From assembly GCF_964194025.1 (NCBI RefSeq), contig NC_134476.1, forward strand, positions 23,064,001 through 23,128,000: a stretch of 64,000 bases of DNA, read 5' to 3'. Under the pieces are notes generated by a model, which saw only the letters and a program-made list of their open reading frames with translations, was not told the DNA's origin and searched no databases. The translations under genes were made by a program, and so were the position numbers. This document shows, piece after piece, positions 24,918 to 64,000 of this stretch. Each line of letters starts with the position of its first letter. Position 1 is the stretch's first letter. The stretch comes from Convolutriloba macropyga (taxonomy: Eukaryota).

Positions 24918-24953
24918 TAATCGGGTTAAGGATTACATCGTCCGCTTTACGTC

Positions 24954-26650: not shown

Positions 26651-26710
26651 TACTTAACCGAAAACAAAGTGATCATCAATAACTTTGTATGACGGCGAAA
26701 ATAAAAGCAA

Positions 26711-33600: not shown

Positions 33601-35384
33601 AAATTCTAGAGTCAACAACTGTTGATCAGTGGTTCCATGTGCCAACCGCAGACAACCCAGCAGATGCTGGAACAAGAGGCATGTCAGCTGAAAACTTAAG
33701 AACAAGCAGTTGGTTAACAGGGGCAAGCTTTTTGTTTACTTCTCACTTCCCTTTTCAACCCAGCACAAGCATCAGAGATAGCCTTCAAACAAAACCATCC
33801 TTGCACAATTCACAAAAGGATGTAACGGAGCCACAAATGGCGTTTGCCGGCAATACAATGCAACCTGAGAAAATATTTGATTTTGATAGGTACAGTTCTT
33901 TCAACAAACTAGTTCGAATTACAGCCTATCTCCTCCGTATACTCCCCAAACATGCTTCATATCTTACACCAGACCGCAATATTTGCAATCCTGATGAACT
34001 TCAAGTAGCTGAGGCTAAGCTTCAGTTTCTCATGCAGTTGGAATCATTCCCAGTTGAACAAAAACTTCACTTTGATGGTAAACAAATTAACAAGAAGAGT
34101 CGCATCGCACCATTCTCGCCCTTCATTGGCCCAAATGCCTTGATTAGATCAACCGGCCGATTGAAACGTTTGGTCGAGGCGGACTATGACCTCAAACCCC
34201 CCATTATTTTAGATGGCCGTCATCCTGCAGTAAAATTGTTTCTTTTGAAGGCACACCTAGAAAACCACCGCGAAAGTGTTGAATTCTTACGAGCTTTCAT
34301 CCAGCGCCGTTTTGCTATCATCAGGCTTCGTCCCGCTTTGAGGTCAATCAAGCACAATTGTATCTTGTGTCGTAAGCGTAGTGCAGACACAGTGAAGCCA
34401 ATTATGGCGGATCTACCAGTCGAGCGTCTGTCCTATGGTAACCCACCTTTCTCCAACTCAGGGATAGACTAATTCGGACCGTTCTATGTCGCCGTCAAGC
34501 GTTCAACTGAGAAGCGCTGGGGGTTCCTTTTCACGTGCCTTATAACTCGAGCGCTCCACATTGAAGTCGTAAATTCTATGGATACCAGCTCTTGTGTTAT
34601 GGGCATAGAAAGATTCATCGCACGAAGAGGGACACCGCAAGTTCTATGGTCAGACAATGGAACAAACTTTACTGGTGCGGAGAAAGAGTTGTCAGCTTGC
34701 TTTAAAGCTTTGAACCAACGTGCGATTGCAAGTAAAATGTCACAGAAAGGTATTAAGTGGCACTTTAACCCTCCATCTTCCCCCCATCATGGTGGTTCGT
34801 GGGAACGCATGGTACGGAGTGTCAAACGGACATTCTACGCTGTACTCGGTAACCACCGATTGACTGACGAGGTGCTCCAAACAACATTCTGTCTAGTTGA
34901 AATGACGCTCAACAACCGGCCGCTCACTTCTGTAAGCAATGATCCATCAGAAATGGACGCAATTACTCCAAATCATTTTCTCCTCGGGTTCCGTCCTAGT
35001 ATGCTCTCTTCATTAGTTGAAAAGGAAGATTTTAATCACAGAAAGCGTTACGTCCGGGCGCAATCATATGACGACTCAATTTGGAAACGATGGTTGGATG
35101 AGTACGTACCGGCTTTGAATCGTCGCAGTAAATGGTCAAAATCCGCTTCAGATGAGCTAAAAACAGGAGATCTGGTATGGCTCGCCGAAGACTCATCTCC
35201 CCGAGGCCATTTTCCTCTAGGACGTATCGAAAAACTTCGCTTTGGTGACGACGGCTTTGCCCGTTCCGCCGAAATAAGAACTAAGTCTGGTAACTATGTC
35301 AGACCCGTAATTAAATTAATTCCAGTTTTTGGTACACCACTTTTGGGGCCGGAGGATGTGAATACAAATGTAAGCGAGCAATAA
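29617..35384 (+). pseudogene. pol: BEL/Pao Gag-Pol remainder (zinc knuckles, PR, RT, RNase H, IN) with an in-frame TAA at 34470-34472
   Basis: Triple CCHC cluster, ALCDPACS (PR, D-T/S altered), WYLPH..KPGKIR, SAGIEGMF (RT Asp to Gly), YMDD, HVFGDSS/PKLEL/NPAD, GID*FGP, SDNGTNF, GGSWE; frame continues into the 34578 ORF and the 3' LTR. Confidence 0.93.
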
Positions 35385-35936
35385 ATGTGAGCGAGAAATG
35401 TGAACTGCAAATGTGAACGAGTTTATATTTAAATTGTATGCGTAACAAAACAAGTAACCATAGCGCAGTTAGTATAGCACTGTACTCTCAATCTAAAGAC
35501 CGGTGTTTCGAGCCCCAACCATGTCAAACCTTACGAAGCAAAATCCGTATTCTAATACATGTGCCTTGAGCAAAGAGCCGTTTGAGAGCGAGCGGTTTTA
35601 AGCTAAACTACCAGATTTAGACAAAGATGACTTGGATATAAAATTATTAGAGTAACAAAACGCATTGAATGGTTTAACTTTAAGGCCAAAGCAAGGCCAA
35701 ATTACGTCACACATGAACTGAATTGACCTTTATTGGCCCACAAAAGGCTAAGAGGTCCTGTCTAGCCTTTTCGCCGCCAGTGTTACTTTAGATATCTTAT
35801 GTGTACGACCAAGAGGATTGTTATGCGTGATCGAATAAGTGCTTATCGTTGAAAATACGTATTGTTATCTTGAACAAAAATTGTTCTTTTAACCGTTTTC
35901 TGTAGTTCGAGTCTTAGACGTTATCCAGCTCGAATA
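35357..35936 (+). repeat. 3' LTR of BEL/Pao element (580 bp)
   Basis: Preceded by PPT 35345-35356, followed by TSD CTTAT. Confidence 0.95.
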
Positions 35937-43616: not shown

Positions 43617-44487
43617 CTATCTCCAACTCTCACATGCAAAAGCGAGATCACCCTGGTCTTTATAGTCATGTAAAAACACACCATTATATCGTCTAATTGC
43701 TATCACACAGGGCTCGTGGCCATCCACCCCGTTGGGTTCATTGTGGTCCCAAGGGATCATTCCATTCACGTTATTGCCCTCCATATCTTGCCAAAACCCG
43801 TTTGAATAGTTGCTAACACCAACCCAAAAATTATGCCCGCCAAAATGATTGGAAACAATGGTCATCAGTAACTGATCAGCTTGCCCGAAGAAAAGATGAT
43901 ATTTATCGCTCGCCGTGAAAACCATTTCATCACAGAATATAGCGGCGGCGGCTCGGTTCGCGTGGTGAAGTCCAAAAACTACTGTTTCTGATTTTCGGCC
44001 AATGGAGCAATCGTCTGTTTTGCCGCCATGGGTATCGCCAATGCATTCTCTTAGCCGGTTGATTCCACTAAATTCACCGCTAGAGATAGATTCAGGATCG
44101 CTCCACTCGGTCCAGTGAGCATCGGTTCGCTTTGGGTTAATTGCACACTTACCGGGACTGAGATCATTTTGAATACTTTTGATCATTCCGTTTTCGTAAC
44201 ATATAGGTTGAACAAATTTTGTCATTCCGACATAAACGCATCTTGGTGCGTTTTTCAAACGGTCAGTCGGGTCTGTAAAGCTGTTTGTTCCTTTTGTGTG
44301 ATAAACATTGTGAATATCTCGAGAGTTCAGCTCGCATATTTGAACAACACTACAATAATTAAAAGATTTGCAAGCTGGAATTAGTAGACATACTTTTGCA
44401 CAGTCCAGAAACCGATATTGATATCTTTTCGAAATTATTGTTGTCACCAATCTTTTGTTGTTGTGAATTTCGTCGAAGATAGTAAAT
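43617..44487 (-). CDS. PAN/apple + TSP1-like + C-type lectin protein, paralog of 16779-17637 (terminal exon)
   Basis: Shares CKSFN.C, PGKCAIN.KRTDAHWTEW, HLFFGQ.DQ, FWVGV, EPNG, RYNGVF.HD, FACESW; probable acceptor TTTTAAAACAG| at 44488. Confidence 0.85.
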
Positions 44488-47400
44488 CTGTTTTAAAAGG
44501 TTTAGAAATTGACATGCGGGCTAATGTTCATCAAATAAGCAGATTTTTAGCTTTGACTTTAAAAAACTCATCTTACGTGGTCAGCATCTTAGTAAAAGTC
44601 AAGCTTAAATTCTTTTGATGGACTATTTGAGTCAAGCACAGTCTGTTCATGCCATTTTATGGACGCTCGATGTCTTTTTTATGAAGAATTTTGTATTTTC
44701 GCCGTTAGAAGGTTTTCTGGCTGTGGGCTGGCTAGCGCCCAAAACTTTATCAACATTCCGAAAGATAGGTATGGTGGTTCGTCTAGTTGTTGTGAGCGTT
44801 CTGTTCTGCCCCCAAAAGGGTTACTCTCTCGACTTCAAAAAAGCACTCTGGATAATTGATTAGGTATTTATCAATAATTGTCATACCAGCGACCGGTAAG
44901 GTCATAGCCAGAAACATATAATTGAATAACTTCATCAATCCAAGAGCAAATTTAATATAAAAACTAATTAAAGATTCACTCCAGCTCAAACCAATTCAAT
45001 CTATCTATCTGCAAGTCTCCAAAATTTAGTTAATTAACTTCTCAGGTCAGAAACCTCTAACAAATGCTGCCTTCCAGTTGCTCCATCCTCTCAACTAACA
45101 ATTTCGGCTACGTTTGCAGTTTCAGTCACCGCAATTAAGCAAAGATGTTCTTAAACAAAGAACTCACTATGTCCCTCAAATGTTCTCCTCCTGAGAACTA
45201 ACTACTCCGCTCGAGCGTGTGTTTCCTTTATTTTATTCGATCCTGCTTGTTCTCGATCTCTTCCGCGTTCTTCCCCCGAATGATGAGTTTTCTTGTGCTT
45301 AGAGATACTCACCCTTTTCAGATTTTATGAGCGAAAATTAGCGTGTCGTATAAATTAGAACATTTTGAGCTCAGGAATATGTGCTATGATGGGTGTAGAA
45401 GGTCAATCACGTGATGCAATTTATCCTGTATGTGTTTGCTCAAGTCCACCGGAGTTTCGTTGTCCAATTATTTTCTTTTTTTTCAGGATTCAAAGACCAC
45501 GTTTTATGTTTCACCATCCCAGTGCAAGCACATCCATGCTTGCCTATACCCGCTTCTTCCCAAGTTGTGGACACTTGTCCAATTCTTCCAGTGAGTACCC
45601 CGCCTCCACTTAGTAGGTAGCAGAGTTTGCCATTCAAAAAACCCAGCTTTTCCCCTGATGATCACATTAACCAAAGTTGCAAAAACTCAGTACTTCCGAC
45701 TTCTTCTTCTTTGTGGGATATTGCCAGCAATGATACATTGAAATTGAAAGGTTGTCAGGTTGAATGTTATACGTTTGGGCGGGTTTTTTTTAAAAAAATA
45801 CTATGATTGTTGTAGAAAGGTTGTTTCTTACACGAAAGTCAAAAAAACTTTTAGTTAAGTTTTCTTTTCTTTTGGTTAAAAAAACAATCTTTGGTTACCG
45901 GAAATACCCTCTGTTTCTTTAATTGCGTGCGCAAATATCATTAAAGTCACCAGTTAAAATATCAAGCCAATTGGGCGAGAGGAAGTAACGTTTTAAAGAT
46001 TTGAGGCTGGGGTCATGAAATTTCAGACACCTAGATTTTTAACGAATAAATTTATCCCTGCCAAAAATTCTTCTAAACCACCTTTATATTCTTCTCCACG
46101 TTTCAATCTAGTTGCAAGAAGACTTCTAAGCAAAAATTAGTCCTGCCTCAAACATCAAATTTGATTCGTGAATGGTTAACTCCACGCAAACCGTGACTCC
46201 AGAACTTTTAGATTTTACAAAGTTTCTACCATTGTGCAACCAAAATGAAGCCTTTTCTTCAAAAATAGATTTTCTTTACTCTAGGGTTAGAAAAACATTA
46301 ATAAAATTCCTTTGCTTTGACTAAGTTTGTAAGTAGACACTTTGTTTTTCCCACGAACTACCTCATATATTTAACTGACTGACCCATATTGAATATAAGG
46401 ACTCCAAAAATAAATTGTCACAAGATTTTTACCGCATTTATTCCGCAATCCAAAATCCCTCCAAAATAATCACTATAAAAGTTTAAACGAAATTTGCTAG
46501 CAATTTTGATCCAAAACTATCACTATATAAACGAACAAACAATATTTTTATTCTCTTTATTTTTAACATCAATTCTTCAAGCACTTCTTTGAACAGACTT
46601 TTAGCCTTGTCGTGGAGCCACGCATGCTTGACTCTTCTATATAAAACCCAGCATCCTGTCAAGATACCCCATGAAAAAATCATTTTTTCAATGACTACCA
46701 AAAATCTTTGCTGCAACAATGTCCGGTACAAATTCATTTGTTAAACATTTTTCAAAGGTTTAGTTTGCTTTCTTTCTCACCGAATAAAGATTTTCACGAA
46801 AAACCTTCTCATTTCTAGTTCAATTTAAATCGTTCTCTTTGGTGTTCATTAGTTGCCAGTAAATAGTTTTCTTTTTTCTTGTACAAAACCAAAATTGGCC
46901 AACAAGTTCCTAAACACGCAATTTTAATGTATCTATTTTTTGCCGTCCTTTTTTGTCTACTAGATAACCCATCATATTTTTCTTTAAAACTTCATTTAGT
47001 CTCACCCAATAAACCCTTATTTAAGGGGAACAAACAATTAAATTTTCAAATCTATTGGGTTTTTAGATTTTCAGTTTAAATGTTTTCGTGAAGATTTCCC
47101 AACTGAAACTACCTTGGTTTTTGCAAAGTTTTTTTTTGTGTCTGCGGTAATTAATATGGTTTTTGTGCATACAATAATCTCTGTAGTTCATTCTTTGTCT
47201 TTCTGCCAATCTAATGATTTCGCAAAACAAATTTGTTTTTTTGTTTGTTTGGCAAATAAGAACTGGTTTTCACTCCAACTTATACTGCTCAAGTTCGTTC
47301 AATTTGTTTACTTAGTAAGTATGTTCAATATTAGCTCCAAAGTTAAGCAAACTAATCAATCACTCATAATCAAAATTTCTAACAATTATTGGTTCATATG

Positions 47401-50400
47401 CTTAGAATTTAACTATTCAAACCCAATTCCACTTTATAAATCGAAGCCTAACGGGTAGCTCTGCTAGTCTATTATCAATTATCAGGAATTGATTCAAACG
47501 CCAAAATCAAATAGCAGTAAGGAGTTTCAATAGAATCAAATTTTGTTCTCGGCCAAGTTTCTATTGGAAAACTCAAAAGATTTTTTAAAGAAAGGAAGTT
47601 TTGGGAATTCATCGAGAAGCTAAAAAATTGAAATATAAATTGGAAGAGTTTTTCGCGACTCGTTTTTTAGGAGTTGTCCAAGAATTGCTTCAGAAATTCA
47701 AAAAAAAACGATATAAAATACATTCGGAGAGTTGAATGAAAATTTTTACCAATAAAACACCTGTTTCTTTTTTTTTGAGGATGAACAATCGGTAGAAACG
47801 TTTTTACCTTTAATTTTTCTGAAACGAAGAAAAGGATTTTAAGGTGTAAAAAAATCGTCAAAAAAAATTGTTTCGAAAAAATTTATTTTGTTGTCATCTG
47901 TTTTCATTGGTTGCGTGCTCTCTAACTGATTCAGAGTTTTCTTTGTTTGAAATTTTTTTTATCTGATTTAATACTTGAATTTTGTTTGATTTCTTAAGTT
48001 CTTAACTTTTTACCTCTTTTTTCAGTTTCTGTAATTATGGTTTTCAACAAGAGTTAAGCTTTCTGTCACTGTTTTGCTCACCATTGTTTGTATTGAGGAA
48101 ACAAATTTGTCACGAACAATTTTCTTGAATTAAAGACCATGAGTTAAATTATGTGGCATGCAACCGCTCTACTTAACCATTTTTAACTTATCTTGCCTTT
48201 TAATGTTTGTATTATGAAATGCCTGGAGATATAATTGAAGATTTTTGGCTTTTAAAGAGAGTAGAAATAAAGCTAAGCAATTGATGGATGCGGCGTTTTA
48301 CGTAGCATGGGCTGCTTAACGTGCGTTTTCACCAAAAAAAACTCTTAATTAACAATTGTTTTTTAAAATTAATTTGTGAAGAGTCGGGCTCTCTTAAGAT
48401 TTCAACGCCTTGTGTCCTCTGATCCAGTTTTAACTGTTACAGTTGAGGAAAGCAGGCCTAATTACGTTTGAATATGGCAACTTTTGGATTGAAATCTGTA
48501 TTTTTCAACTTGCAAGTCTAATGATATTGGCTTTGTTTGCGCTCGACAAAAATTGACCAGATGACCAGAGCTTCTGCTCATGCTATGTCTAATTATTTTA
48601 TGCACTATTTGTTCTGAAATTTAAATCTAACATAAACAATATTTCGTTTTGTTGTACATTTTTTTGCCATCCTTTGATTTTTTTAGTACTGAATTTCCCG
48701 TAGAGTTTATATACGTGCTCCTCAGATGCACGCGCCTTTACAAATTCACGTTAGTTACCCAGGTTGAGGTGCACGACCCTTAAATCAGCTCTGATCAGGC
48801 CCACTTGGGTCACAAACAGGGGGGTAAAGCGTGACCCGGCAACAGTCCGACAGCAAGTATACGGTCTGGGAAGTCTGATCATGGCCGCATCCAAACTCTG
48901 AACGATCTGATCGGAGCGCCGTCAAGAATCTGGTAAAATGGTCATCAGGATAGTATTAACAGAGCACATTCCAGAGTAGCTAAGTCTGGCGCCTCCTATG
49001 CGCGACGCAAGTTGGTCTAATCAGATCCAGTTTCCATCTGGTATGATCAGATATGATGGCTTGGGATGCGCGCCTTGGTTTGGATAGTTCAATTTAATTA
49101 ACATAAAAAAGCTTCGCTCAGAAATAGCAGTTTTGAGTAACCTACCTGTTCGCTAACATCGGCAGAACGATTGAATTAAGTATCCCCGACAACAAAATCA
49201 TAAAAATTAAGATGTGCATGGCGATTTGAAGCATTTCAATGCTTCTTTTAGATTTTAGGTTTCCAAATTTTGGTAGATTTTTCAACAAAGTTACCGCTGA
49301 ACTCAATATTTAAATATATTATATAAGCTTCATAGCTCGTAAGAGTTTGAAAGCAAAACTGTAGATCAAAGTATATCGATTGAAAGTCTGATGAAATGCT
49401 CAATGGCATCAAAATTTCCTGTAGCCGAATAATTGCTGATTAATATTTCAGTTTGCTTCATCAATTTATATTATACTATAATAACAGACTTAAATGCCAG
49501 GTACGCCCGCATTGGAACAATTGAGATAAAAATTGATTTTATAGCGGTTTTCATTTTAAAAATGTTATCAACAAAATCCCTTCTACGGCCTCAATCTGGG
49601 ACCATTTTAACGATTTAAATCCTCTTAAATCCATTTACTTATGTTGAAAAAAATGGATTATAGTCGTTTAGAGAACATTTGAAATGGATTTAAATTGAGC
49701 TACGAAAACTCCCTTAAATAGATTATTATCTCCGCTCAGTGAAAACCGATATATTTTTAATTTTAAATTAACATTTCAATTATTTTTAAAGTTTTAATTT
49801 AGAGTTTCAAGTCCATCAGTTTTCCATCAGTTTCAGTCCTTCCGCTCCATGTGATATCTTCGCAACAGCAAGTCCATCGGCTCAACAGGTGCCCAGATGA
49901 AGAAACTGAAGATCTGCATCCAAAAGAGAGAACAAAATGCTGTGAAACGTTGAAAATTTTTCAAATAGTGTAAAATTAGCAAATTTTTTGATCAAATAAT
50001 GGATTTTCGACAATTTTTCGGCTATTTGTTCGTTTTTCGGACCTATTTTTGAATAATTTTCGTATATTTTTGAAGGGGTTGACTTACTTTTGTCCCGTTT
50101 TTTTGGAGATCGTTTGCCTGAAATCAAGGGATAACTGAATTAGTTGAATTGAAACTCAAAAATCCAATTTGAGCTAACCGATTTTTGGTCTTTGGGAGAT
50201 GAATATTTGGGCTGTGATGTTGTAAATCTCCAATTTGAATCTTGAAAGAAAACATTTTGCGAAGCCAAAAAATAATGTAAAAAATTTGTTGAATTGACAT
50301 TTTAAACTATCAAATTTGGCTGGGCTGCTACAGATCACACAATACGGGATCTCTTTATGTATGCCAGTCAAACTTGACAAAAGATATAACAAATCGAAGG

Positions 50401-50521
50401 CAAAGATATATGCCTAAGACCTGTCTGTGCTATAAGTCTCAATTTAAAATAGTTGGGGGGCTGAAAGTATTAAATTTATAAAAGAGTAAATATAAAATTA
50501 CAGCTTACTAATTACCAGTTG

Positions 50522-51410
50522 TGTAGTGAAGAATTGGAGGTGAGCTGTTGGGCGATCGTTCACTTGGGTGTTTCTTCAGTTATGTTATTTGTCGAAAAAG
50601 AAAGTTATAAAATTAAATCTGGAATTATTAGTCTAAGTTATTAAACAATTTTGTTCGACTATTTTATTGTTAAAGTGAAGTTAAATTTTGAGAAAAATGA
50701 AAGCAGTTGTCTGCTGCTTGTTTCTGGGAGTGATTTCTGGTTCTCTAATTTTATTCCGTCCCACTTCGCTGAGAGAAACAATTAATTCCTCTCAGCTCCG
50801 TTTGGGCCGATAGGGAGCGAATCACAAACTCACGTTCATAGTGAGGTGCTTCTTAATTTTCCTATTGGCCGAGAAGGCAAGAGAATTAACTCTTTTTTAT
50901 CTCACGGAAAAAATATTGAAACTCCAAAAAATAATAAAAATCTAAAAAGCTGAGAGCATCAATTATTGATTTCGTAGGCGCCTGTTTTCTGCTTTTCCCC
51001 TCTTCTAAAACCGCAACAATTATGGTTTTCTTGGGGGCTTTTTATGAGACTCTATTGTCTTTTCCCCTGAAGCAATCTGCTTCATCTTTATTGAAATTGG
51101 GGGAAAAGATCTGCATTGCAACTGTCAAAAGCAGAAGTAATTTAAATCAAAAGAAACTGTGGTTTTACAGGCCGCCTACGTTCAACAATGTACATTTTCT
51201 ATCCTGGATATAAGCGAGGAGATCCAGGCCTAAAGTTGTGTTATTTAAATAAGTCGAACTGAGTTGTTTAAATACTCGTGTACTGGTAGTCTTAACAAGC
51301 GTTAGTTTGTTTAGCGCGCGGCGAAAGAATGGTTAATTAGCGCCTAAATACGTTCGCTCTAATGCGGGATTAATTGTCCGCTCATTTGTAACGGCTCTCT
51401 TAATACTACA
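50522..51410 (-). repeat. Putative 3' LTR (889 bp)
   Basis: Starts TGTAGT immediately after the purine tract on the minus strand and ends ACTACA (6-bp terminal inverted repeat); partner LTR not in window, so the far end is inferred. Confidence 0.8.
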
Positions 51411-51602: not shown

Positions 51603-52736
51603 TTATTCAAAAAATTCTGGGGGCAAAATGACTGGGCTTGGCACTGGACTGTTTCCATCGTCCATGATATCAACCACTTCCACTACTTCATCTCCGTCTT
51701 CATGCTTTTCGGTATTTGATAGTTCCTTGATTATCCTTTTTTGTTTTCGGTTCTTCTTCTTGAGTTTCGTCAATTCAGAGTTGAGTTGTTGTACTTTTTC
51801 AATCAGTTTTTTGTTCTCCACTCCTAAATTCTGATTGGCTGTAGTAATTTCTAAATGCTTTCTTGCATACACTTTGTTAATTTCTTTAACATTACTTTCC
51901 TCCGTTTTTTTTACTTGCTGGGAGACGATGTACTGCCTCCGCCAATAGTCATCGCTTGTTATTTTCTCCTTTTCACTGTTCTGCATTTGTAATCTTTCAA
52001 ATCTAATTCGTAGCTCCTGCAATTCGGTTTCTTTAACAAATAACTCCTGTCGGAACTTGGAATTCTCCGAAATTAGTGAAGCTTGGGTGACTTCTTCGAT
52101 GGCGTCCGCAGGCGTCGGGAAGGCAGTTAAGTGGGCATAAGGGAAGTTGACATACGAGTCCAGCTGATTGTTTCTGGCGAGGTAAGTGTTCTTTTGGGTA
52201 TCTCTGTCTTTTATTCTCCAGACGCTTGTTGTTTCTGGTAATGAGAACTCTTTCAAAATAGGCAGGTTTTCAGTTTTCGCAAGAAATTCTTCGCCGGTTG
52301 AAATGTTCTGAACCTTAACTTTGTCAGAGATTCTGAACTTATTGGCTTGCATTTTCAAAGTGTACTTCAAGTTCGTCACAAATCTGGGGCTCATGGGATT
52401 TACAACGTTTTCCCTAATTTTCTGAATTTTCAAGCAATAGGGGATGTCCTTTCGCTCTTTGTCACTAATGAGGTCATCTATATTTGCCATTTTTCTTATC
52501 TTCTCTGCGTGACTGCTTTGTTGATTTCCTGGTGCTGGTCTCTTTCGATTGACTATCCAATTGTTTTGCGGATCATATTGACTCGAAGTTGATGGAGGTG
52601 CAATGGTTGTAGTAAATGGAGGCTTTGAGAAAATAGGAGGCTGGGAAGAATGGGTTTGTGTTTGTTCTTGTTGTGTTGTTACTTGTTGATGTTGATTGGG
52701 GATTACTACGCTTGCGAGTGTGGGTCTGGTAGTCAT
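51603..52736 (-). CDS. 377-aa accessory protein: T/Q/P/S-rich N-terminus, coiled coil, basic NLS-like motifs, acidic tail
   Basis: Long intact ATG ORF; RKRP and KKKNRKQKR; heptad-like ELQELRIRFERLQ and LIEKVQQLNSELTKL; no family recognised. Confidence 0.8.
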   Translation of the reverse strand: MTTRPTLASVVIPNQHQQVTTQQEQTQTHSSQPPIFSKPPFTTTIAPPSTSSQYDPQNNWIVNRKRPAPGNQQSSHAEKIRKMANIDDLISDKERKDIPYCLKIQKIRENVVNPMSPRFVTNLKYTLKMQANKFRISDKVKVQNISTGEEFLAKTENLPILKEFSLPETTSVWRIKDRDTQKNTYLARNNQLDSYVNFPYAHLTAFPTPADAIEEVTQASLISENSKFRQELFVKETELQELRIRFERLQMQNSEKEKITSDDYWRRQYIVSQQVKKTEESNVKEINKVYARKHLEITTANQNLGVENKKLIEKVQQLNSELTKLKKKNRKQKRIIKELSNTEKHEDGDEVVEVVDIMDDGNSPVPSPVILPPEFFE

Positions 52737-53020
52737 TGTGAATGTTTCCTTGTGGGGGATCTAAAATATTTTGATCTTGGTTAGCCTGTGTCATCAATAT
52801 CACACATTATGGCTTCTTTTCAAGTTTGCAATTGTATTGCTAACATAAAATGTATTCTATTGTAAAAATGTTTTTGTAAGGTTTTGTTGCTAACTGCTTT
52901 ACTTAAAAATTATAATACTAAATGCATTTGTTATTAAAGTTTGGTATAAAAGTTTTTGTTTTGCTAAATGCAAAGTTAACTTTAATAAAGGAGGGGGGGC
53001 AATAATAAAAAAATTTTTAT

Positions 53021-53344: not shown

Positions 53345-53725
53345 CTAAAGAAAATTTTTGCAAATGGGACATCTTGTCAGCTTATTTATGCACACTCGAC
53401 AGAATCGGTGTTTGTCATGTTGGGAAAAATGTGGGTGTTTTGTTACTCCTAATTCTGTTTTCATTTTTTTGCATAAATTGCAATGAAAGTAGGATGTGAT
53501 CAGGACGGGAAGACAAGGTCGAAGACAAATGGGACATTTAGGGTTTGGGTATCTTTTAAAAAGTGCTTTTCTGCAAGGAATACATACATAGTGGGGATTT
53601 TCTTTGGGGAATTGCTTGTGTAGTTTTTCTACAATAACGGTTTTTCGTGAACATATAGGGCAGATAATGTCCTTATGGGGATAGAACCAACGGAAACCGT
53701 CGAATAGGGATTGTGAAAGACCCAT
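53345..53725 (-). CDS. Double RING-like (C2H2C4) zinc-finger protein 1, possible N-myristoylation
   Basis: CPIC-x10-H-x8-H-x2-CIPC-x12-CPIC then CNLC..H..H-x2-CRVC-x6-CPIC; starts MGLSQS. Confidence 0.85.
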   Translation of the reverse strand: MGLSQSLFDGFRWFYPHKDIICPICSRKTVIVEKLHKQFPKENPHYVCIPCRKALFKRYPNPKCPICLRPCLPVLITSYFHCNLCKKMKTELGVTKHPHFSQHDKHRFCRVCINKLTRCPICKNFL

Positions 53726-53795
53726 CGAGTGACTGTTCTCTTATTTCCCTTAGATAGAAACAGGAAAACCTTTGAGAAACTGCAGTAGGATGAGA

Positions 53796-53990
53796 TTAAT
53801 GAGGAACGATATGGCGAGCAAGGTAATTAGGATTAGGATAAATATTTTTGTGGATAGGTCTAGATTGGTCATTTTTAGTATCTGGAGAAAATTTGGCGAA
53901 TTGCGGAAAGGAGGTAGTTATTAATAAAGAGGGATATTGCCAATGCGCATAAGAGAACAAATAGAAGAATAACAATGTTATGGGTTGCAT
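53796..53990 (-). CDS. 64-aa hypothetical peptide with hydrophobic N-terminus
   Basis: AAAAAATG start, co-oriented in the accessory block; no homolog in window. Confidence 0.4.
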   Translation of the reverse strand: MQPITLLFFYLFSYAHWQYPSLLITTSFPQFAKFSPDTKNDQSRPIHKNIYPNPNYLARHIVPH

Positions 53991-54138
53991 TTTTTCAATT
54001 CAATGAGTAGTGCAGAACTAGGGTGAAGGAGGTGACTTGTTCCTGGTAAAAACTGAGTTGAATTAGGGATATCGGTTGGATTAAAAATAAAACTAGGGAA
54101 AGAAGTAAAATTTTGGATGTTCTTGGACTTATTTTAGA

Positions 54139-54516
54139 TTATGTGGTTGTTTTTTTGCAACGAGGGCATAATTTATAATCTTCTACGCAAAATTTACAAA
54201 AGTTGACGGGCTTATGATCACTGTGATGAAACGTTTTTGCAACAGAGTATTGAAATCTTGTTTGTTTGCAAATATCACATTGAAACCAGTTAAAGATTGA
54301 AAAGATAACATTAAATTTAGAGCATTTAGGACAAAAATCGTAGCCCATATCTTTTATAACATATTGGTAACAGAGCAGACACATTACGTGGGGTAGTTCG
54401 TCAGGGGGGTTCTCGTGTAATTTCTTGAAAACAATTGTTTCACGTCTGCAGCATAAACAAATTAATGAGACCGGTTTGGATTCTATAGTATTGGTTTCTT
54501 TGTCAGTTGTATTCAT
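54139..54516 (-). CDS. Double RING-like zinc-finger protein 2
   Basis: CLCC-x10-H-x8-H-x2-CLLC-x12-CPKC; WFQCDIC..HH..H..CKFC-x6-CPRC. Confidence 0.85.
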   Translation of the reverse strand: MNTTDKETNTIESKPVSLICLCCRRETIVFKKLHENPPDELPHVMCLLCYQYVIKDMGYDFCPKCSKFNVIFSIFNWFQCDICKQTRFQYSVAKTFHHSDHKPVNFCKFCVEDYKLCPRCKKTTT

Positions 54517-54542
54517 TTTTGGAAGATTGTTATTGGAGGGGA

Positions 54543-54746
54543 TTATGGGACTGGTATGGTTGGAGGATTTGGTTGTAGATTATTTTGGGATTTTATTGCT
54601 TGGTCTATTACTAATATAACTACTAACATCAAAAAATTGAAAGGAATACTTACAACAACGAGGAAAACGGTTAAAATGAAGGAGAAGGCTGCTGCAATAA
54701 TCATAAGGGCCATTAATAAAAAATCAAGTACTTTGGGGATAAACAT
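54543..54746 (-). CDS. 67-aa hydrophobic membrane peptide with Pro-rich tail
   Basis: First ATG at 54746; ~37 uncharged residues FLLMALMIIAAAFSFILTVFLVVVSIPFNFLMLVVILVI. Confidence 0.6.
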   Translation of the reverse strand: MFIPKVLDFLLMALMIIAAAFSFILTVFLVVVSIPFNFLMLVVILVIDQAIKSQNNLQPNPPTIPVP

Positions 54747-54784
54747 TTTGGATAATTTGTGAAGGTTGTTTCGAACCAAGGATT

Positions 54785-55183
54785 TTACCACGGGTTGTTT
54801 GGGTCAATTGTTTGTTTGCATAAGGGGCATTTAGTAGTGGTGAAGGTCATACACTGCAAACAAATTGATTGTTTTGGGTGAAAATCTCCGAAGTGACTGT
54901 GGCAGGTGGATAACTTTTTGACTTCTTGACAAGAATCACACTGGAAATAATGGCAATGACTGATTGTATAAATGGGAGTTACGCAAATGGGGCATTTAGG
55001 TTGGTTCCAATATTTAAATAATTCGTTTCTACAAGGAATGCAAGCAAAATGGGGGGGCTGACCATTTGGTTTTTTGTGCATTTTTTTGAATTGACGGCAA
55101 GGGAGATAACAAACAGGGCATTCAACTTTAGGGGTTGTATCAATTTGAGGTTGCTGAGACGATATTTTCAGAATGTTTCCCAT
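54785..55183 (-). CDS. Double RING-like zinc-finger protein 3
   Basis: CPVC-x10-H-x8-H-x2-CIPC-x12-CPIC; YFQCDSC..H.H...H..CLQC-x7-CPLC; starts MGN; ATG overlaps upstream stop (TAATG). Confidence 0.85.
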   Translation of the reverse strand: MGNILKISSQQPQIDTTPKVECPVCYLPCRQFKKMHKKPNGQPPHFACIPCRNELFKYWNQPKCPICVTPIYTISHCHYFQCDSCQEVKKLSTCHSHFGDFHPKQSICLQCMTFTTTKCPLCKQTIDPNNPW

Positions 55184-55449
55184 TATAAGGACAAATTAGA
55201 AAGATCCGGGTATACGAGTTCTAATCCATGGTGTTCAAGTTCGTTGGGGATAGTTACATTTAAATCTGCAATAGCAAAAAAGAAATTCCAGTGTTTCTCG
55301 TTTGGATAAATGTAATAATGATTAATGGTACCGGTGCTTAAAAACATATAAGTTATCTTGATACATGCTTTATACTGTGTGAAACAAATATTGAACCATC
55401 TTTCTACTTTAACAATTTTAATTTTTTCCTTACCAATAAACAAAATCAT
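55183..55449 (-). CDS. Unknown small-protein family, paralog A (88 aa)
   Basis: ERWF...P.EKHWNFF...PNEL; C-terminal YPDL. Confidence 0.78.
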   Translation of the reverse strand: MILFIGKEKIKIVKVERWFNICFTQYKACIKITYMFLSTGTINHYYIYPNEKHWNFFFAIADLNVTIPNELEHHGLELVYPDLSNLSL

Positions 55450-55583
55450 TTTAGTTTTAACAATTTGGAAAGAAATGAGGGGAAAAGAACAAATTGATCA
55501 GAAAAAAAGGATAGAATAAAATGAAGAAGAGGAAAGGAGAAAAAAAATTTTTGTGGAGAGCAAGTTATGTAGAACAAATTACT

Positions 55584-55814
55584 TTACTGAAGAGCGCCCA
55601 AGTTGACTGGGAAGTGCTCTTCGATATCGATGAGTGCGAGAAAGAATTCCCAGTGCATCATTCCCATGGTGACTCGAGTAGAACCCTCACATCCACGTTC
55701 GTAGTCAGTATAATGTATGATTATACAGGGCTTTATTTCTGCAGTGGGAGTTTCAATGAAAGATTTCTCGAGGGATTCTACTTTGACTAGTCGCTCACCA
55801 AAGTGGAACAGCAT
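55584..55814 (-). CDS. Unknown small-protein family, paralog B (76 aa)
   Basis: EKSF...PCIIIHY...HWEFF...PVNL; TAATG overlap with C. Confidence 0.78.
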   Translation of the reverse strand: MLFHFGERLVKVESLEKSFIETPTAEIKPCIIIHYTDYERGCEGSTRVTMGMMHWEFFLALIDIEEHFPVNLGALQ

Positions 55815-56047
55815 TATAGGAGATCTAAATTAAAAGGGATTTTGGAACCATTTAAAGCTTGGGATACATTTATGAAGAATGTCCAATAGGGGGAAGATGG
55901 TGTTAAGATGATGGTTCCATCAGTCCAAGTGTTTAAATATTCAAAATGGAGTATTAGTTGTGGTATAACTCTGTTACTTTTTGTTGTCACAAATGATTTT
56001 TCAAAAAATTGATTTTGTATAAGGCAATTTTGGTATGAGAATACCAT
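55814..56047 (-). CDS. Unknown small-protein family, paralog C (77 aa)
   Basis: EKSF...PQLILHFE..TW...ILTPSSPYWTFF...PFNL. Confidence 0.78.
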   Translation of the reverse strand: MVFSYQNCLIQNQFFEKSFVTTKSNRVIPQLILHFEYLNTWTDGTIILTPSSPYWTFFINVSQALNGSKIPFNLDLL

Positions 56048-56056
56048 TGCTGTTTT

Positions 56057-56341
56057 TTAATTGGTAATTGTTTCAAATTCTTTAGTAATTAAATCGTTTT
56101 GAGAAGAGTCACTTTTCGGCAATTCAAAATAAAGATTGTGAGGTACACAGTTTGGGTTTTCTAGAATAAAGAGGAAGAATTTCCAATGAACTGAGAGAGG
56201 ATTAATACTTATTAAACAAATTTTTTCACTTTGGATTTCTTTGAGCGTTACTAGCATAGTAGGTACAGGAGTTGGGTATGCATCAAAAGATCGTTGAATT
56301 TTTTGTAACTCTACAAATTTATTGTTAACTGCAAATATCAT
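56057..56341 (-). CDS. Unknown small-protein family, paralog D (94 aa)
   Basis: QRSF...PTMLV...INPLSVHWKFF...PHNL. Confidence 0.78.
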   Translation of the reverse strand: MIFAVNNKFVELQKIQRSFDAYPTPVPTMLVTLKEIQSEKICLISINPLSVHWKFFLFILENPNCVPHNLYFELPKSDSSQNDLITKEFETITN

Positions 56342-56356
56342 AGTTTAGAATGATAC

Positions 56357-56596
56357 CTATGCAATGTAGATTGGATGTTGTACTTGAAATACCGAGTTCT
56401 CTTTGAATGCTAGAAAAATGGTGAATTCGGCGAACTGAGGATGAGTAATGAAAATAGTTAAAAGTCTGTAAATATTTGTCATGGGTTTTTTTGCGAAAGT
56501 CATTATACTTATAGCGGAAACATAGTATACGGCTAATAGCTCAAAATTTTGGTTTCCGATTCTGATTTGTAAGTTTCTATTAGTTAAATGGATCAT
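56357..56596 (-). CDS. Small protein F (79 aa), possible distant member of the family
   Basis: LQIRIG..HPQFAEF resembles G (LFIRFG..HSNFQYF); overlaps end of E by 17 nt. Confidence 0.6.
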   Translation of the reverse strand: MIHLTNRNLQIRIGNQNFELLAVYYVSAISIMTFAKKPMTNIYRLLTIFITHPQFAEFTIFLAFKENSVFQVQHPIYIA

Positions 56597-56822
56597 GTTG
56601 TTGATCTAGCTCATTTGGCAGACTATTAGGGTCGAATTGTGCTAAATACACGAAATAATTCCAATACAACGAATGAGGGGTTAAAATCACAGTATTGTTT
56701 TCCCAAGTGTCCCAAAACTCAAAATTTATAACGATTTGAGGGAAAATGTCTCCGTGATTTTCTTCAAAAGTTTTCTTTATTTGATAAATTGTAACGAGTC
56801 TATCTTGAAACAAAAAGTACAT
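56580..56822 (-). CDS. Unknown small-protein family, paralog E (80 aa)
   Basis: KKTF...PQIVINFE..DTW...ILTPHSLYWNYF...PNEL; closest to C. Confidence 0.78.
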   Translation of the reverse strand: MYFLFQDRLVTIYQIKKTFEENHGDIFPQIVINFEFWDTWENNTVILTPHSLYWNYFVYLAQFDPNSLPNELDQQHDPFN

Positions 56823-57123
56823 TAATGGAAGCGTTTTAGTTGTTAATTAACTTATTGTTCTTCATTTCAAAACTATGTATAAAAGTATGTAAATGTAAAA
56901 AAAAGGATAAAAAAGGGTGTGTCAATTATTTCTGAAAAGAGGATTATTGACAACGATTGATATTTATAGATAATATATCAATCGGATTCACTGCAGCAAA
57001 ATCGAAGTAGGGGAAGAGTGCAGGCAATAGCTAGATAGACATAGTTGCGATTACATAGTTGAAAATGGATTATAAGAATTAAAAAGCAAGGAAGGAATCC
57101 ACACATGTCTCTTAGAGGAAAAG

Positions 57124-57408
57124 TCAAAGTCTAATAATATTTTTCTTCAGACGCTTTGAAACAATTTTGTATTCGACTCCAATGTTTACAAAAGTAATTG
57201 TGTCATCAATCAGGGCTCTTAACAATGAGAAGTATTGAAAATTTGAATGCGGTACGTCCAAGTCTATAATGTCACTGAAGTAGAAAGATGCAACTCTAAT
57301 AGTTACAGTAGTTTTTAAATCGGAAAGACTTGAGGATAATATCTGTCCGGTGTATTGTCCAAATCGAATGAATAAAGCGTTAGGCTGTTTTATGAATTTG
57401 GGTTGCAT
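57124..57408 (-). CDS. Small protein G (94 aa), first ORF after env
   Basis: ATG ORF, similar to F; basic C-terminus. Confidence 0.6.
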   Translation of the reverse strand: MQPKFIKQPNALFIRFGQYTGQILSSSLSDLKTTVTIRVASFYFSDIIDLDVPHSNFQYFSLLRALIDDTITFVNIGVEYKIVSKRLKKNIIRL

Positions 57409-57532: not shown

Positions 57533-59876
57533 TTAAGGAGGTGCCACCACACTTCGAATGGTTGCATCGTTTTGCGGTTGTGGTTGATGTGACGCCAGAT
57601 TTGGGTATTCTACTTTATTATTTTCTGTATGACAATGCTCGTCAATTTTATTTTCTCTTGGTTGATCCTCAACGCATTTGTAAGTTTTTTCTATTGTGCT
57701 GTAAGGTTGATAATTACTGAGCGGTAAAAAATGATTATTGTTCTGTGGGGCCGACGGTTTGGTTTCGTTAGAGAATACCGGTGTAAAGAACGATAAGATA
57801 CAAAGATTATATGTTGCTCCTAATAGAATTTTCCAAAAACCCATTGTTGGATATTTTGTGGATTTCGAACGCTCTTATGATTGTTACGATTACATCAGTT
57901 AAGAATTTTATGCACAAGAAACAAGCAAAATAAACTCCAATTTTTTCCAGATAAAAACTGATGATTCCAAAAGTGCCTTTGAACTGGTCTGTAAAAAATG
58001 TTGGTGAAAGAAGAGAATCTAGATAAATTTGTCTGTTAATTCCCATTGCTGACGCATAGATATCTTTTTGAGAATAGTCTATGCTTCTTCCTTCTAGAAC
58101 TTCTCTTGAAATTTTTGTCAAAACAGATTTTGAAGCTTCCGAATGCAAGATATTGTCCCAAAACGATTTAAGTTGATTTGGTGTGTAAATTCCGGCACGT
58201 TGCGATTCGTAACCGGTAAATTTTGGAATAGAACTAATAACTCTTGAAGAGAATATTTTTGGCGGTTGTAAAGGAACAGGTGCTGGCATCAAATGGTACC
58301 ATGAATTTTCATTATCAATATCTAATTGGTAGGCATTTTTGTAGCCTCCAACACAATCTACTTCGTTTGCAAAAGGGTAGTTTTGTCGAGTAATTGGGTC
58401 GACGAACATTGTCCTACCATCATAATGAATAGGAATCCTATCATAACACTGTTCAAGAACCTGAAGTGGTGAGTTTCGTTTTGGACAGTGGTACAGCCAA
58501 CCTATGCTACCATCTGTGTCTAAGAACATCGAGCGGTTGCCGGTTAACATATATCCAGCTAAACGATTGTTTTGGATAGCCTGCATTAGTATCATTTGTT
58601 TTTGAGTTCGGTCAAGTTCGCATTGTTCTATGACCAAACCTTTCCATGCTTGTTTTATTTGCATGTAATTATGATATATGACAAAATCCATTTTTACCGC
58701 AAGGTTAAGATCATAGTCTAACTTGTCTTTGTCTAAGTGTTCCCATGCAACAAAACCATTGTCGGATGTTCGGATCTGTTCATCTGAAGGCTTCCTATTA
58801 AACCCATTTACACTTAGGCTATTGTCAGGTTCAACACGAAGTTTATGAAAAAATTGTTGAGTTTTTGTTTTATAAGGTTTGCCAGTCTTCATAATAAATC
58901 AGCCTTTATAAGAAACATATAAAGAATCTAAATTTGTTCTGTAAATAAATTCTGGTTTTCCACACACCTTTTCTTTTTCATCAATTACTCTAATTTTTAT
59001 GTCCATTTCAGCAGGAGAATACGTTCCTGGTCCTTCATAGGGCGTCTCCGGTTTTTCATCACTCACTATGAAATACTGTACGTTACCAAGTTCGTTTTCA
59101 TGTTTTAGCATTTTTGCGTTTTGTGAAAATCTTTTAGTAACTATACAATTTTCCGGTGCCTCCCAATTGTATGCAAAGGGGTCGAGTGATGTCGAATGAC
59201 AACCTCCTTCTGAGAGGGCACAAGGAAGTTTTAGTCCTTGACTGTTATAGACAGTTCTGTCATTAAGATCAATATCGAGTACAGTTTCTTGCATCAGGGT
59301 TTCAAAAGAGAAATGTTTAATTTGACCACGATTATCAAAAGATGTTGATGATTCACCTTCAAGATCAACTCCCTGGTTTTTATAGGAGACAGTTTTTATT
59401 CCATGTTTTATGTCAATTTCCATGTCATCATCGTCAAATTCAGTAACAGTAATTTTTCCAGTTTTATTAGCATTTAGGCATTGTTCGGGTGAAACAATAA
59501 TATCGTATGTTATTATTGGAGCGTTGTGTACAATTGATGAATGGGAAAACATACAACAATTATAACGAATGAGCATTGCAGTGACTTTGCACATAAGAGC
59601 TTTAACAAAGGTCCGATAAGACCGTTGATAAAGTGTTACATGTGTATCAACCATCTGAATGTTTTCGGGTGTAATTTTGCAAGGAGAAACTTGTGTTAAA
59701 GCATACATTTTATTTTCTTTCATTTTAGAACAGTCATAGTGAATGACCCTAAGTTTGTTAGATACGTCATTAATATCCTCAGTAGCGTTAATAACTATAG
59801 AAAGAGTACAAAAGTAGAAAAGGCTTATAAGTAAATAAGAAAAATAAAGTTTTTCAAAACAAGGATATCTTTTCAT
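57533..59876 (-). pseudogene. env: Envelope glycoprotein, chuvirus-G / class III (gB-related) type, ~780 aa, one in-frame TGA (58899-58901) and one frameshift (~57845)
   Basis: Signal peptide; HYDC, CKV..YNCCMFSHSS, LPC...GGC...YNW...NC, KMDFV..CELDR, AGYM..C, CYDRIPI..FVDPITR; C-terminal TM segments. Confidence 0.82.
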
Positions 59877-59978: not shown

Positions 59979-62900
59979 TTAAGTAAATCCGGCTTGATAG
60001 CGTGATGGCGGCTTGGCCGAGCGACTAGAAGTTCGCCTATTATTATTATTATTTTCTAAAGTTTGTAAATTAGAAGGTCCTTGTTCCGATGTATTAGGGC
60101 GGAGAGGACTTAAATTAGGGTCTAGAGGTATTCTAGAATTGTGCTGTGGGCAAGGAGTTGAACTTCTTGTTCGACTACCGCTAGGTAGGTGTGTTTGGAC
60201 TGGAGGTGGGTTATTACGACCACCTGAACTTGCTTCGTTGAATCCAGAATCGAAATTGGTAGGGGTTCGGTCAGGGTCGAAGTTCTGCACAGGGGAGTCT
60301 CTTCGTATGAAATTATCCACGGGGAAATATTCGGTGTTAGTGGGGCTTTGGAAGGAGAATTTAGTCAAAGGACTATTGAGTTTATTCATCTGACTTGTCA
60401 TTAGATTATTATAAAATGTGTCACAATTATTTTTATCTATACCATACTCTAGGGTTAACTCTGGTATAGTTTCAGTAGCTGGGTAGTACTCGACTAGGTG
60501 ATTTCTATGAGCGACCTTCCTGGTGGCCGGGTTGCTATCTAAAGTTAATTCATAGTTAACATTGGTTAGTTTTTTTCTACAGTATAAGGACCTGATCTTA
60601 GTTCATGTAGTTTTTTTGACTTTCCTAACTCAATTTGATGGTTTTCCATTAGAACTTTTTGTCCAACCTCAAGTGGCTTGCCTAATTTGTGTTTGTTTCT
60701 ATGTTTATGTGCGCGGTTATTGTTTTCTAAGCTCTTTTTATAAGCGTTATTGTATATTTGTTTGAATTGGTTTTCTCGCATAAGCAACGAATTGTTAATA
60801 GTTGGTTTTAGAAGTTTGTCAATTTCGGTGTTTTTTGAAGTTTGCAAGGTATGCCTGTGAAGAGGCAGGTCTTAGCAAAACTCGGAAGAGCATGTGAGTT
60901 GTGAATTTCTTAGGAGTCCTAACTTAAGTGACAGAGGTATCTCTGGTTTTTGTCCGAACACAATTTCATAAGGTGAAATTCCAGTACTAGCATTTGGAAC
61001 CGTGTTATGAGAAAAGGCAAATTTTGATGCCAGTTCGTCCCATTTACCTCGAGCTTGTTCTAGAAAAATTCGGAAATGTGCTCCTAGATGTTTGTTTTGG
61101 ATCTCGACTTTACCATTAGTCCAAGGCGCATAAGCAGTTCGAGGTGCGGGTGTTATACCTAATTCATGAATGTAACTCGCAAAATCTTGGTTCATGAATG
61201 CCGAACCCTTATCATAAACAAGTTTTTGTGGTATTCCAAAAGACAAGATGAACTTTTCTAAAGCTTTTATGGTGTCTACTGCGTCTGTGGAACGTACGGG
61301 GTATACTTGAATGAAACGTGAAAATGAATCGACAATAACTAAACAATGGTGTTTACCGTTCGATGGAGGATTTAAAGGTCCTTTGTGATCAATATGGACC
61401 GTATGAAAGGGGAATGGGACTGTATCAGTCCACTTTTCGAGAGGTGCTTCGTGGATATCTCTCCGTTTTTGTTTATTTTTTTGGCATTCAAGGCAATCAG
61501 CAATTAGGTTTTCAATCCATTTATACATTCCGGGCCAATAAAAAAATCGTTTTACATTAGCAAGTGTTTTATCTAAATCTACATGACCTGACAGTTCACA
61601 ATGAGCTAGCTCAAAAACTTTAAAGAACAATGACAGTGGTACACAAATTTTTAAGTATTCAATATCTGGTTCGTCTGTTTGTTGTTGAATACATAAGATG
61701 TTACCTACAAAACTCAGTTTCTCAAAGTTATTAATGTACGACCTTATGGCTTTAGATTGTCGGAATTCAATTTTCTTTTCATCTTTGTTATTGTTCGTCC
61801 TTAATTGGCGAATTTGTTGTATCACTGGGTCTTTTAATTGTTCTTGACAAATTACCGATGTATTTAAATCAACTTCTTTAGAGAAGATTGTCAGTTTATC
61901 GATGAGTTCTCTTGCATCTTTTATTTTTGGATTTTCGGGAAGTTTTTTTGCTAATTCGGTTTTATCTATACAAGTGCTATTTTTCACGAGAAAAACTTTA
62001 TCGTATTCTAGAGGGAATCTGTACTCCGAGTCTTTGGTATTAGTTTGATCAATGTAGAGTTTGTCAAAATCTAATTCCGGTGACTGGTTCTCATTGAACA
62101 ATTCAAATTCCGAAATTGGGTCAAAATTTTGTTCGGTTATCCCTTCATCAGGGTTAGGAATCACTTTCTGTATAATGATCAGACGTTTCGTCTTCCTCCT
62201 GTTCTGACACAGGGGTTATTTCATGTTTGCGGTGACGCCTATAGTGGTTAATTGATGAACCATACGAGAAATCTTCCGAAATATTGTTTATTGAGCAAAG
62301 TCTGTTTTGATTATTGTCGTACTTTTGCTTTACCATTTTGTCATTTTTGAAAATGAATTTGTCGATACCCGTTATGCTTTGTTTTAGGATTGGAAAGAAG
62401 TCATCTGCTGGTCCCTTTTCATTATCACGCAAAATGAAGTATTTTTCCTCGTTACCATGCTCGTCGTAAAAACTAATGTCTTTTGGTATCTTTTTTGTGT
62501 TTAAGTTGATACTTGTCCAGATCTTTAAGTTTCACATTGCGACTTAGGATGTCAGGAAAAGCTAAGTTTTTTCCTTCAGTCCAAATAATTTTCAAGTTCT
62601 GAAATTGAGATATTACTAACTGGTATCTAAAAAACCTGTGAGAGAGTTTTCCTCTTCTACCCCATAGATACATTAAAGGCTTATGGTCGGTGTACACATA
62701 TACTGGATGGGGAGAACCAATTAGGTAATGCTCATAAGTTTGTAGTGCAGATATTACACCGCAAAGTTCGCGTGCTGTGGTGCTCATTTTTTGTTCCTCT
62801 TTAGTGTAAATTCTAGAATTAAAAGACACTATTCGTTTCCCTTCTGGAAATTCTTGAATGAGAATTGAGCCTACTCCTATGGAAGAAGCGTCTACATGCA

Positions 62901-64000
62901 CGTGGAAAGGGTATTTAGTATCAGGTATTGCTAAGATAGTATCTTCGCTAATCCTGTTTTTAATGTCGTTAAACAGTTTTTCGTGTTCTGTTGTCCAGAC
63001 AAATTTAGTTTCTGTGCGGGTTAGGTCATAAAATGGTTTGCAGTCAACATGCAAATTTTTGATGTACATGCTGTAGAATCCTAAGCAACCTAGAACTCTC
63101 ATGACATCACGTTTGTTTTCAGGCGACTTAAGTGCTTTTAAATCTGCTACTCGCTTCTTGACTGGTTGTATCCCATCTTTACCTACTACATGTCCCAAGA
63201 ACTGTACTTCCCTAAGGAAAAATTTAGTCTTTTCAGGTTGAGCTTTTAATCCTGATTTCCTTAAAAGTTCATGGTACTTGTCAATTATTTCAAACATTTC
63301 GGTTTCATCTTGTGCTTGCATGATGGTGTCATCAATGTAGGTTATAGCTTGTTTTTTTCTAATTAATGGTGCAAAATGGATAGTCATTATACGACTGAAG
63401 AAATTAGGTAGACCGCATAGGCCGTAAAATCCGCGTTCAAATGTGTATTGCTTTGGACCAATTACAAAACTTACCAGCTGTTTGGTTTCCTCAGTTAGAG
63501 GGACTTGGTTATAGGCTGAACAAAGATCACTGGTTGTGAAGAAATTACCTTTTAATCTAGTTAATAGACTTCCAATTGGTTCGAGTGGCCATGAATATCG
63601 ACTAAGGTCTGTTATTGAATTCAGGTATCGGGCATCTATAACCAGTTTTACTGTGTTCCCCTTGGGTAGGATTATGATTGGATTAATAAATTCTGATCCC
63701 ATTTCTTTATCATTACCCATTTCCCGGATTATACCTGTTTTACACAGTTGTTCCAAAAGGTTTTCTAGTTTTTCCTGATAATGTAATGGTACTTTGGATG
63801 GTCTTTGTTTTGTCAAAGTTGATTTAGGTAAAAGTTTAACATGAAACTTTTGTTTTATCTTTCCAACATCGTATTTTTGTTGAGAGTAAACGTCTTTATT
63901 TTTAGTTAAAGTCCTCAGTAACTTGTCTAAGTTTTCGTCATTAATATCAGCTTGACTGAAATCAAATTTTTTGAGAAACGCTTGATCGGTTTTGTCAAAT
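59979..64000 (-). pseudogene. pol: Ty3/Gypsy Pol (RT, RNase H, integrase with GPY/F), 3 frameshifts (~62490, ~62160, ~60570) and one stop (60872-60874); open at window edge
   Basis: KLVIDARYLN, SDLCSAYNQ, YIDD, FLGH; VDASSIG, REL, TDHKPL; H-x5-H..CLEC; IDHKGP, DKGSAF, GKVE; SGPY; HRNHL; terminal RTSSRSAKPPSRY. Confidence 0.95.

Follow-up and report, generated by a model that had tools for sequence, protein, structure and literature searches.

A family of double-finger C2H2C4 proteins encoded by an env-carrying Ty3/gypsy element of Convolutriloba macropyga

The stretch of DNA analysed here, referred to as the window, comprises 64,000 nucleotides of the Convolutriloba macropyga genome (contig NC_134476.1, positions 23,064,001 to 23,128,000). 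Its minus strand carries the 3′ part of a long terminal repeat (LTR) retrotransposon in which three open reading frames (ORFs), A, B and C (Table 1), encode small proteins with two cysteine/histidine fingers each. An env-carrying Ty3/gypsy element bears these paralogous ORFs as accessory genes, and they make up a real, constrained and previously undescribed protein family within an unusually gene-rich retrotransposon. What is new is a variant of two things already known, namely the RING proteins of viruses and the extra ORFs of LTR elements.

Double-finger genes and their carrier element

The spacing C-x2-C-x10-H-x8-H-x2-C-x2-C-x12-C-P-x-C, given for the first finger in a preliminary description of the sequence, was recovered in all three ORFs. 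The second finger likewise fits the pattern proposed for it, [YW]F[HQ]CxxC..H..H..CxxC followed by CPxC, the stretch ahead of the final CPxC being 6, 6 and 7 residues long, and two of the three proteins indeed begin with MG. Although A, B and C share just 30–39% identity, 16 of 16 ligand positions are invariant. Motifs with the C2H2C4 order occur six times in the six frames of the window, whereas 40 block-shuffled windows contained none at all; when the residues of each protein were shuffled 20,000 times, two such motifs never came together in one ORF.

The carrier measures 19,950 bp from LTR to LTR and is arranged as LTR, three small ORFs, gag, pol, env, seven small ORFs, C, B, A, a last ORF and LTR. 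Its 5′ LTR lies ~6.3 kb past the right end of the window, and gag and the first three small ORFs are also located beyond that end. The two LTRs differ by 10 mismatches over 1,103 bp (99.1% identity) and a 4-bp target-site duplication is present. On domain order and Pfam matches, the element is an env-carrying Ty3/gypsy element, with LTRs, target duplication and the gag–pol–env succession all found; its Env matches PF24664 (E 1.2e-22 and 1.9e-14). The term ‘retroviral’, applied to the proteins at the outset, is too wide: the combination of Ty3/gypsy-type pol domains with a Monjiviricetes-type, chuvirus/gB-like env narrows it to errantivirus-like. Gag, pol and env are fragmented in the window copy and uninterrupted in some other copies. 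In the genome searched (1.18 Gb), A and C each have at least 150 matches (the best 150 of 974 and of 996 candidates scored, respectively), and the identical LTR pairs of two of the four other copies examined point to a recent spread of the element family. Gag had zero matches among PDB sequences.

Two sister families with the same layout are present in the same genome, one carrying two double-finger genes and the other a single one. In all three families these genes have the small-ORF array on one side and the last ORF on the other, and each family has at least one member with glycine at position 2 (Gly2). The reverse transcriptase–RNase H region (410 amino acids) of the sister families is 93% and 88% identical to that of the window, whereas finger proteins of different families are 30–51% identical. 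In total, 193 proteins were gathered; both fingers are intact in 105 of them, which group into 12 clusters at 70% identity. Since only 3 of the 11 inner branches of the protein tree were resolved, orthology between families is not settled. A search with the family profile gave 41 matches, among which P0027 (a repeat) and P0040 (single RING-like domains from a metagenome) were excluded as non-members. As searches of the C. macropyga genome for three distant members found none of them (thresholds 1e-12, 1e-25 and 1e-20), the double-finger family probably occurs in other organisms too. Single-protein searches of viral contigs found no relatives; a metagenome match turned out to be a radical-SAM-like locus and was judged false. 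PHROGs matched none of 18 family members, and no longer or fused homologue was found among 1,412 candidates, which is weak evidence. The cluster members looked at bore no names, ‘hypothetical protein’ appearing only on an excluded match.

Purifying selection acts on A and C, less clearly on B. The window copy was compared with the 29 loci that matched A best, out of 150 and with the window's own excluded (28 alignable for C), and the ratio of non-synonymous to synonymous changes (dN/dS) was counted on variants common to several copies, which are not independent events. This ratio was 0.18–0.22 for A (10 non-synonymous, 18 synonymous), a value biased low because the loci were picked for likeness to A, 0.20–0.26 for C (21 and 30; p at most 2e-6; 28 loci) and 0.43–0.56 for B (12 and 8; p 0.06–0.15). 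Indels of frameshift size numbered 0, 4 and 7 in A, B and C, as compared with 15, 36 and 125 in spacers, and every change at a ligand position was confined to a single copy. Gly2, on whose conservation among element copies the preliminary description had made its proposal depend, is kept in A (29/29) and in C (27/28); B never has it (0/29).

Fold and surface of the two fingers

The AlphaFold2 model of ORF C, obtained with 26 sequences, has a mean predicted local distance difference test score (pLDDT) of 82.6 and a predicted template modelling score of 0.74. Finger 1 combines eight conserved ligands in RING spacing with a central helix (residues 49–58, pLDDT about 90 there) and CPxC; it models as a RING, a fold that would entail cross-brace zinc coordination. 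VIA matches to the C model were led by RING and U-box entries on finger 1 (best Z 5.3; RNF146 at Z 4.7, root-mean-square deviation (rmsd) 2.3, 57 aligned), and no PHD, FYVE or LIM title appeared among the 50 entries. The fold comparison that had been called for, RING versus PHD, FYVE or LIM, thus came out for finger 1 as RING/U-box throughout, albeit with weak scores. Foldseek matches included RING1B, TRAF, RNF4, MDM2, TRIM and Lassa Z, and those in BFVD were viral RING proteins. At the level of sequence profiles, TRIM32 (E 5.5e-4) and RNF4 (4e-3) were matched, and 7 of the 18 members examined matched zf-C3HC4_3, the best of them at 3.4e-6; finger 1 alone gave no useful match to PDB sequences. 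Because the second His of the family aligns with the canonical RING His in the TRIM32 alignment, the novelty lies in a His that takes the place of the third ligand, where a longer loop begins.

For finger 2, a duplicate RING is the probable reading, although its top Foldseek match is a PHD. Modelled alone, with 5 sequences, it reached a pLDDT of 67.9, and its VIA matches are mostly RING/U-box (top U-box/RING entries with Z up to 3.9). The profiles of the two fingers align with a probability of 88%, a value inflated by the shared Cys pairs, and this alignment favours an origin of the fingers by duplication.

The residues through which RING E3 ubiquitin ligases contact the ubiquitin-conjugating enzyme (E2) have been described, together with a basic residue that follows the last Cys, the linchpin that many of them require (PMC7010608, available text). 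Finger 1 of the family has an invariant Pro and, in 10 of the 12 clusters, A and C included, three hydrophobic residues at E2-contact positions; the hydrophobic E2-type surface of C is intact. The two clusters without the full hydrophobic set are B-type and still keep all ligands; in B itself, the position behind the finger-1 proline holds Lys instead of a hydrophobic residue. A basic KK[LM]H patch is also conserved in finger 1. In finger 2 the hydrophobic residue of the helix is mostly missing, and the last Cys is followed by Lys in A, B and C and by a basic residue in 4 of the 12 clusters. A tail Trp, found in 8 of the 12 clusters including that of C, is reminiscent of MDM2 Phe490 and XIAP Phe495, the tail aromatics given in the same source (PMC7010608). 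As to the N-terminus, seven clusters start with MG and four of these seven also have Ser6. The sequence MGxxxS is the consensus for N-myristoylation.

Possible functions and known relatives

We consider it somewhat more probable than not (about 0.55) that A and C are myristoylated, element-encoded RING E3 ligases, B being a possible decoy. A and C would be N-myristoylated at Gly2 and thereby seated at membranes, where finger 1 would recruit host E2~ubiquitin. Together with the C-terminal Trp, finger 2 could substitute for a partner RING, forming a pseudo-dimer comparable with dimeric RNF4, MDM2/MDMX and the IAPs and offsetting the missing linchpin; alternatively, the two may bind substrates. 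As a guess, the targets of ubiquitylation could be restriction or membrane proteins of the host, or proteins located at a budding site at which the Env tail presents motifs of the type recognized by ESCRT. B, with its degraded E2 surface and without Gly2, might be a soluble decoy or an MDMX-like partner. C may be expressed by stop/start reinitiation, and A and B, again as a guess, by splicing or internal promoters. The preliminary description had proposed element-encoded E3 ligases, mimics or matrix-like factors: the genes do belong to the element, and the RING-like finger 1 with its E3-type surface residues agrees with the first of these roles, while the lack of late-domain motifs weakens the case for a matrix or budding role.

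Several observations weigh against the ligase interpretation. Finger 1 has the basic linchpin behind its last Cys in 2 of the 12 clusters and in none of A, B and C, Gly2 is missing from 5 of the 12, and no substrate-binding domain is recognizable in A, B or C. Fold scores are weak throughout, as the best Z value given above illustrates; no Foldseek match to the C model had E under 0.001, and Pfam scores are under the curated cut-offs. Moreover, Lassa Z fits finger 1 as well as any E3 does (template modelling score 0.70 by target, rmsd 1.9), and Foldseek is ambiguous for finger 2 alone, a PHD ranking first (E 0.4) and the RNF4 RING second. A complex prediction for residues 15–132 of C with a host Ubc13-like E2 and zinc, in which the prepared alignment was unused, scored 0.14 (mark 0.34) and is counted for neither side.

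Alternatively, the proteins may be matrix or bridging proteins in the manner of arenavirus Z, in which a myristoylated RING would line the membrane and connect the Env tail to a Gag without lipid anchor of its own. Like Z, they are small, have Gly2 (A and C; not B) and a RING fold, and come from an enveloped agent; Lassa Z is also among the Atlas matches (0.86), and Gag starts with MA, without Gly2, in three of three families. No late motif (PTAP/PSAP, PPxY or YPx(n)L) is present in A, B or C, and the only one in the 14 family proteins scanned overlaps a ligand position. Such motifs could, however, be supplied by the cytoplasmic tail of Env (57533–57844, minus strand), which contains YPNL and, in two of three families, PSAP; a YPDxxL motif lies close to the start of Gag, and Tacaribe Z is reported to bud without classical late motifs (PMC3509680, available text). 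On the other hand, the present proteins have two fingers with two His among the ligands of each, occur as 1–3 paralogues per genome, are carried by a retroelement and diverge much faster than pol, and many env-carrying Ty3/gypsy elements have been described with gag, pol and env only (available text of PMC13524379). Membership of the Z family itself was rejected, since there are two fingers rather than a single central RING and no C-terminal late domains. By analogy, the finger proteins would work like a viral RING E3 and, less likely, like Z; we regard the Z-like role as unlikely.

Less likely still, the proteins could be dead E3 mimics or RING adaptors that block a host pathway by binding E2s, RING E3s of the host or some other host factor, with no transfer of ubiquitin. 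The absence of the linchpin from 10 of the 12 clusters would fit such a role, as would the B-type proteins, which lost part of the E2 surface and retain all ligands, and the binding of eIF4E by Z provides a precedent (PMC3509680, available text). Nevertheless, the hydrophobic E2 triad and the tail Trp are kept at just 25–40% identity, as expected for an active E3 of the dimer type.

A role as regulators of the element that bind nucleic acid or chromatin, similar to Rev/Tat or to CERV proteins and with finger 2 as a PHD-like reader, appears improbable. The PHD match of finger 2 and the basic patch of finger 1 would be in line with it, and in Cer1 viral RNA is exported by an accessory protein rich in Cys; CERV has a Cys loop rather than a RING (PMC10309623, available text). 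Conserved Gly2, however, points to membranes, and both the VIA matches of finger 2 and its alignment with finger 1 favour a RING. Finally, despite the non-significant constraint on B, it is most improbable that the ORFs are mere passengers, captured and copied along unexpressed, given the dN/dS of about 0.2 for A and C on variants common to copies, the small number of frameshift-size indels relative to spacers and the identical position in three element families.

It is tempting to speculate further that a lineage of ‘complex’ errantivirus-like elements of invertebrates has a DNA-virus-like accessory region, in which an expanding array of unknown 80-amino-acid proteins, single-chain, pseudo-dimeric, myristoylated C2H2C4 RING ligases and a decoy paralogue would form a retroelement-encoded ubiquitin system. 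With the small proteins as adaptors for substrates, this system would bring about budding or the degradation of defence factors of the host, in either case without a host E3. We offer this extension as a doubtful one, to be taken tentatively.

The comparison with MDM2 made in the preliminary description holds in part. MDM2 and MDMX share with the family the ligand order C,C,H,H,C,C,C,C and an aromatic residue in the tail after the last RING, and MDM2 is among the Foldseek matches of the RING-like model (probability 0.80, E 0.14). In contrast, the His–His gap is 4 in MDM2 (H452–H457; PMC7010608, available text) and 7–8 in finger 1 of the family, there are two fingers per chain and no p53-binding or acidic domain, and the sequence match to MDM2 (E 0.13) is weaker than those to TRIM32 and RNF4. 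Membership of the MDM2 family was rejected on His spacing, the absent p53-binding domain and this weak match, and descent is no more likely than convergence to account for the likeness. The C2H2C4 order has been called unique to Mdm proteins (PMC6372010, available text), and a literature search for viral C2H2C4 RINGs returned only titles on Mdm2/MdmX, E3s or disorder reviews.

The RING E3s of large DNA viruses (herpesvirus ICP0, baculovirus CG30, PE38 and IE2, poxvirus p28 and giant-virus RINGs) are likewise virus-encoded and provide the nearest BFVD and Atlas matches, but these are weak (E above 0.01) and concern single RINGs in larger proteins outside retroelements. Among retroelements, the ‘ancient errantiviruses’ with gB-type env, which occur across animals, resemble the present element in their LTR–gag–pol–env order, class III fusogen and young multicopy insertions; the element described here differs in its length of about 20 kb and its about 14 extra ORFs, and the prefilter of that survey kept regions up to 10 kb (PMC13524379). 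The available text and supplements of the same survey do not mention RINGs, zinc fingers or accessory genes, and there is no RING in the accessible parts of PMC5408684 or PMC12440569. Myristoylated RING E3s do exist: MGRN1 combines a lipid anchor with a RING and acts on membrane proteins and ESCRT, but it is far larger, of C3HC4 type and equipped with an adaptor-binding domain (PMC13161197, available text). In the literature searched, which included few subscription papers and no repeat databases, no account came to light of a Ty3/gypsy element with RING accessory genes.

Should the ligase interpretation hold, the RING genes would be part of a fast-diverging cassette of variable copy number and would provide a second C2H2C4 RING besides Mdm, probably of independent origin, as well as a natural two-RING single chain in which to study linchpin-free E2~Ub activation. 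Complex retroviruses redirect host E3 ligases via adaptors such as lentiviral Vif and Vpx, and large DNA viruses encode RING E3s of their own. An invertebrate Ty3/gypsy element with its own RING ligases would bridge the two, and the substrates of these ligases would lead to host defence factors.

Other features of the element and the window

Table 1. Features of the element. Positions are counted from the first nucleotide of the window, except for the last line, which refers to locus L031.
Feature	Position	Strand	Remarks
3′ LTR	50308–51410	minus	1,103 bp
Last ORF	51603–52736	minus	377 amino acids; C-terminal half coiled-coil-like; no family; counterparts in both sister families
ORF A	53345–53725	minus	126 amino acids; start MGLSQS (MGxxxS); without C-terminal Trp
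ORF B	54139–54516	minus	125 amino acids; paralogue; start MNTTDK, without Gly2; weaker constraint
ORF C	54785–55183	minus	132 amino acids; double C2H2C4 finger; start MGNILK (Gly2); C-terminal Trp
Small-ORF array	55183–57408	minus	between env and the RING genes; seven ORFs of 76–94 amino acids; five clear paralogues of one unknown family, two align more loosely
env	57533–59876	minus	Monjiviricetes-type (class III) fusion glycoprotein; three pieces in window copy
pol	59979–64000	minus	reverse transcriptase, RNase H, integrase; several pieces in window copy; runs past window end
Three small ORFs between 5′ LTR and gag	L031 ~2510–3660	minus	85, 78 and 124 amino acids; in 5/5 copies read

The small-ORF array has counterparts in both sister families (L049 8969–9976 and L070 840–2253). 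Its proteins had no match in Pfam (0/12), PDB or Atlas (best entry 0.77). Stop and start codons overlap as TAATG at two junctions (window 55814 and 55183), the second being the start of ORF C, and other gaps measure 9–45 nucleotides in places; such tight junctions suggest coupled translation. Upstream of the last ORF, TGCATTTAG is found twice (window 52918–52972, minus strand) and once at the equivalent place in a sister family (L049 7801–7810), its count within the window alone being not above chance. On the element strand the LTRs start with TG and end with TA rather than CA (window 50308), and a tandem repeat of ~105 nucleotides is present in the leader at locus L031.

The window contains a separate LTR element on the plus strand (~24340–35910), with an internal 1.1-kb duplication of gag and tandem repeats in its leader, which from its motifs we take to be BEL/Pao-like. 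Two paralogous, host-like genes, each in a single frame (16779–17675 and 43617–44492, minus strand) combine a Cys-rich N-terminal part with a C-type lectin-like domain (E 0.005).
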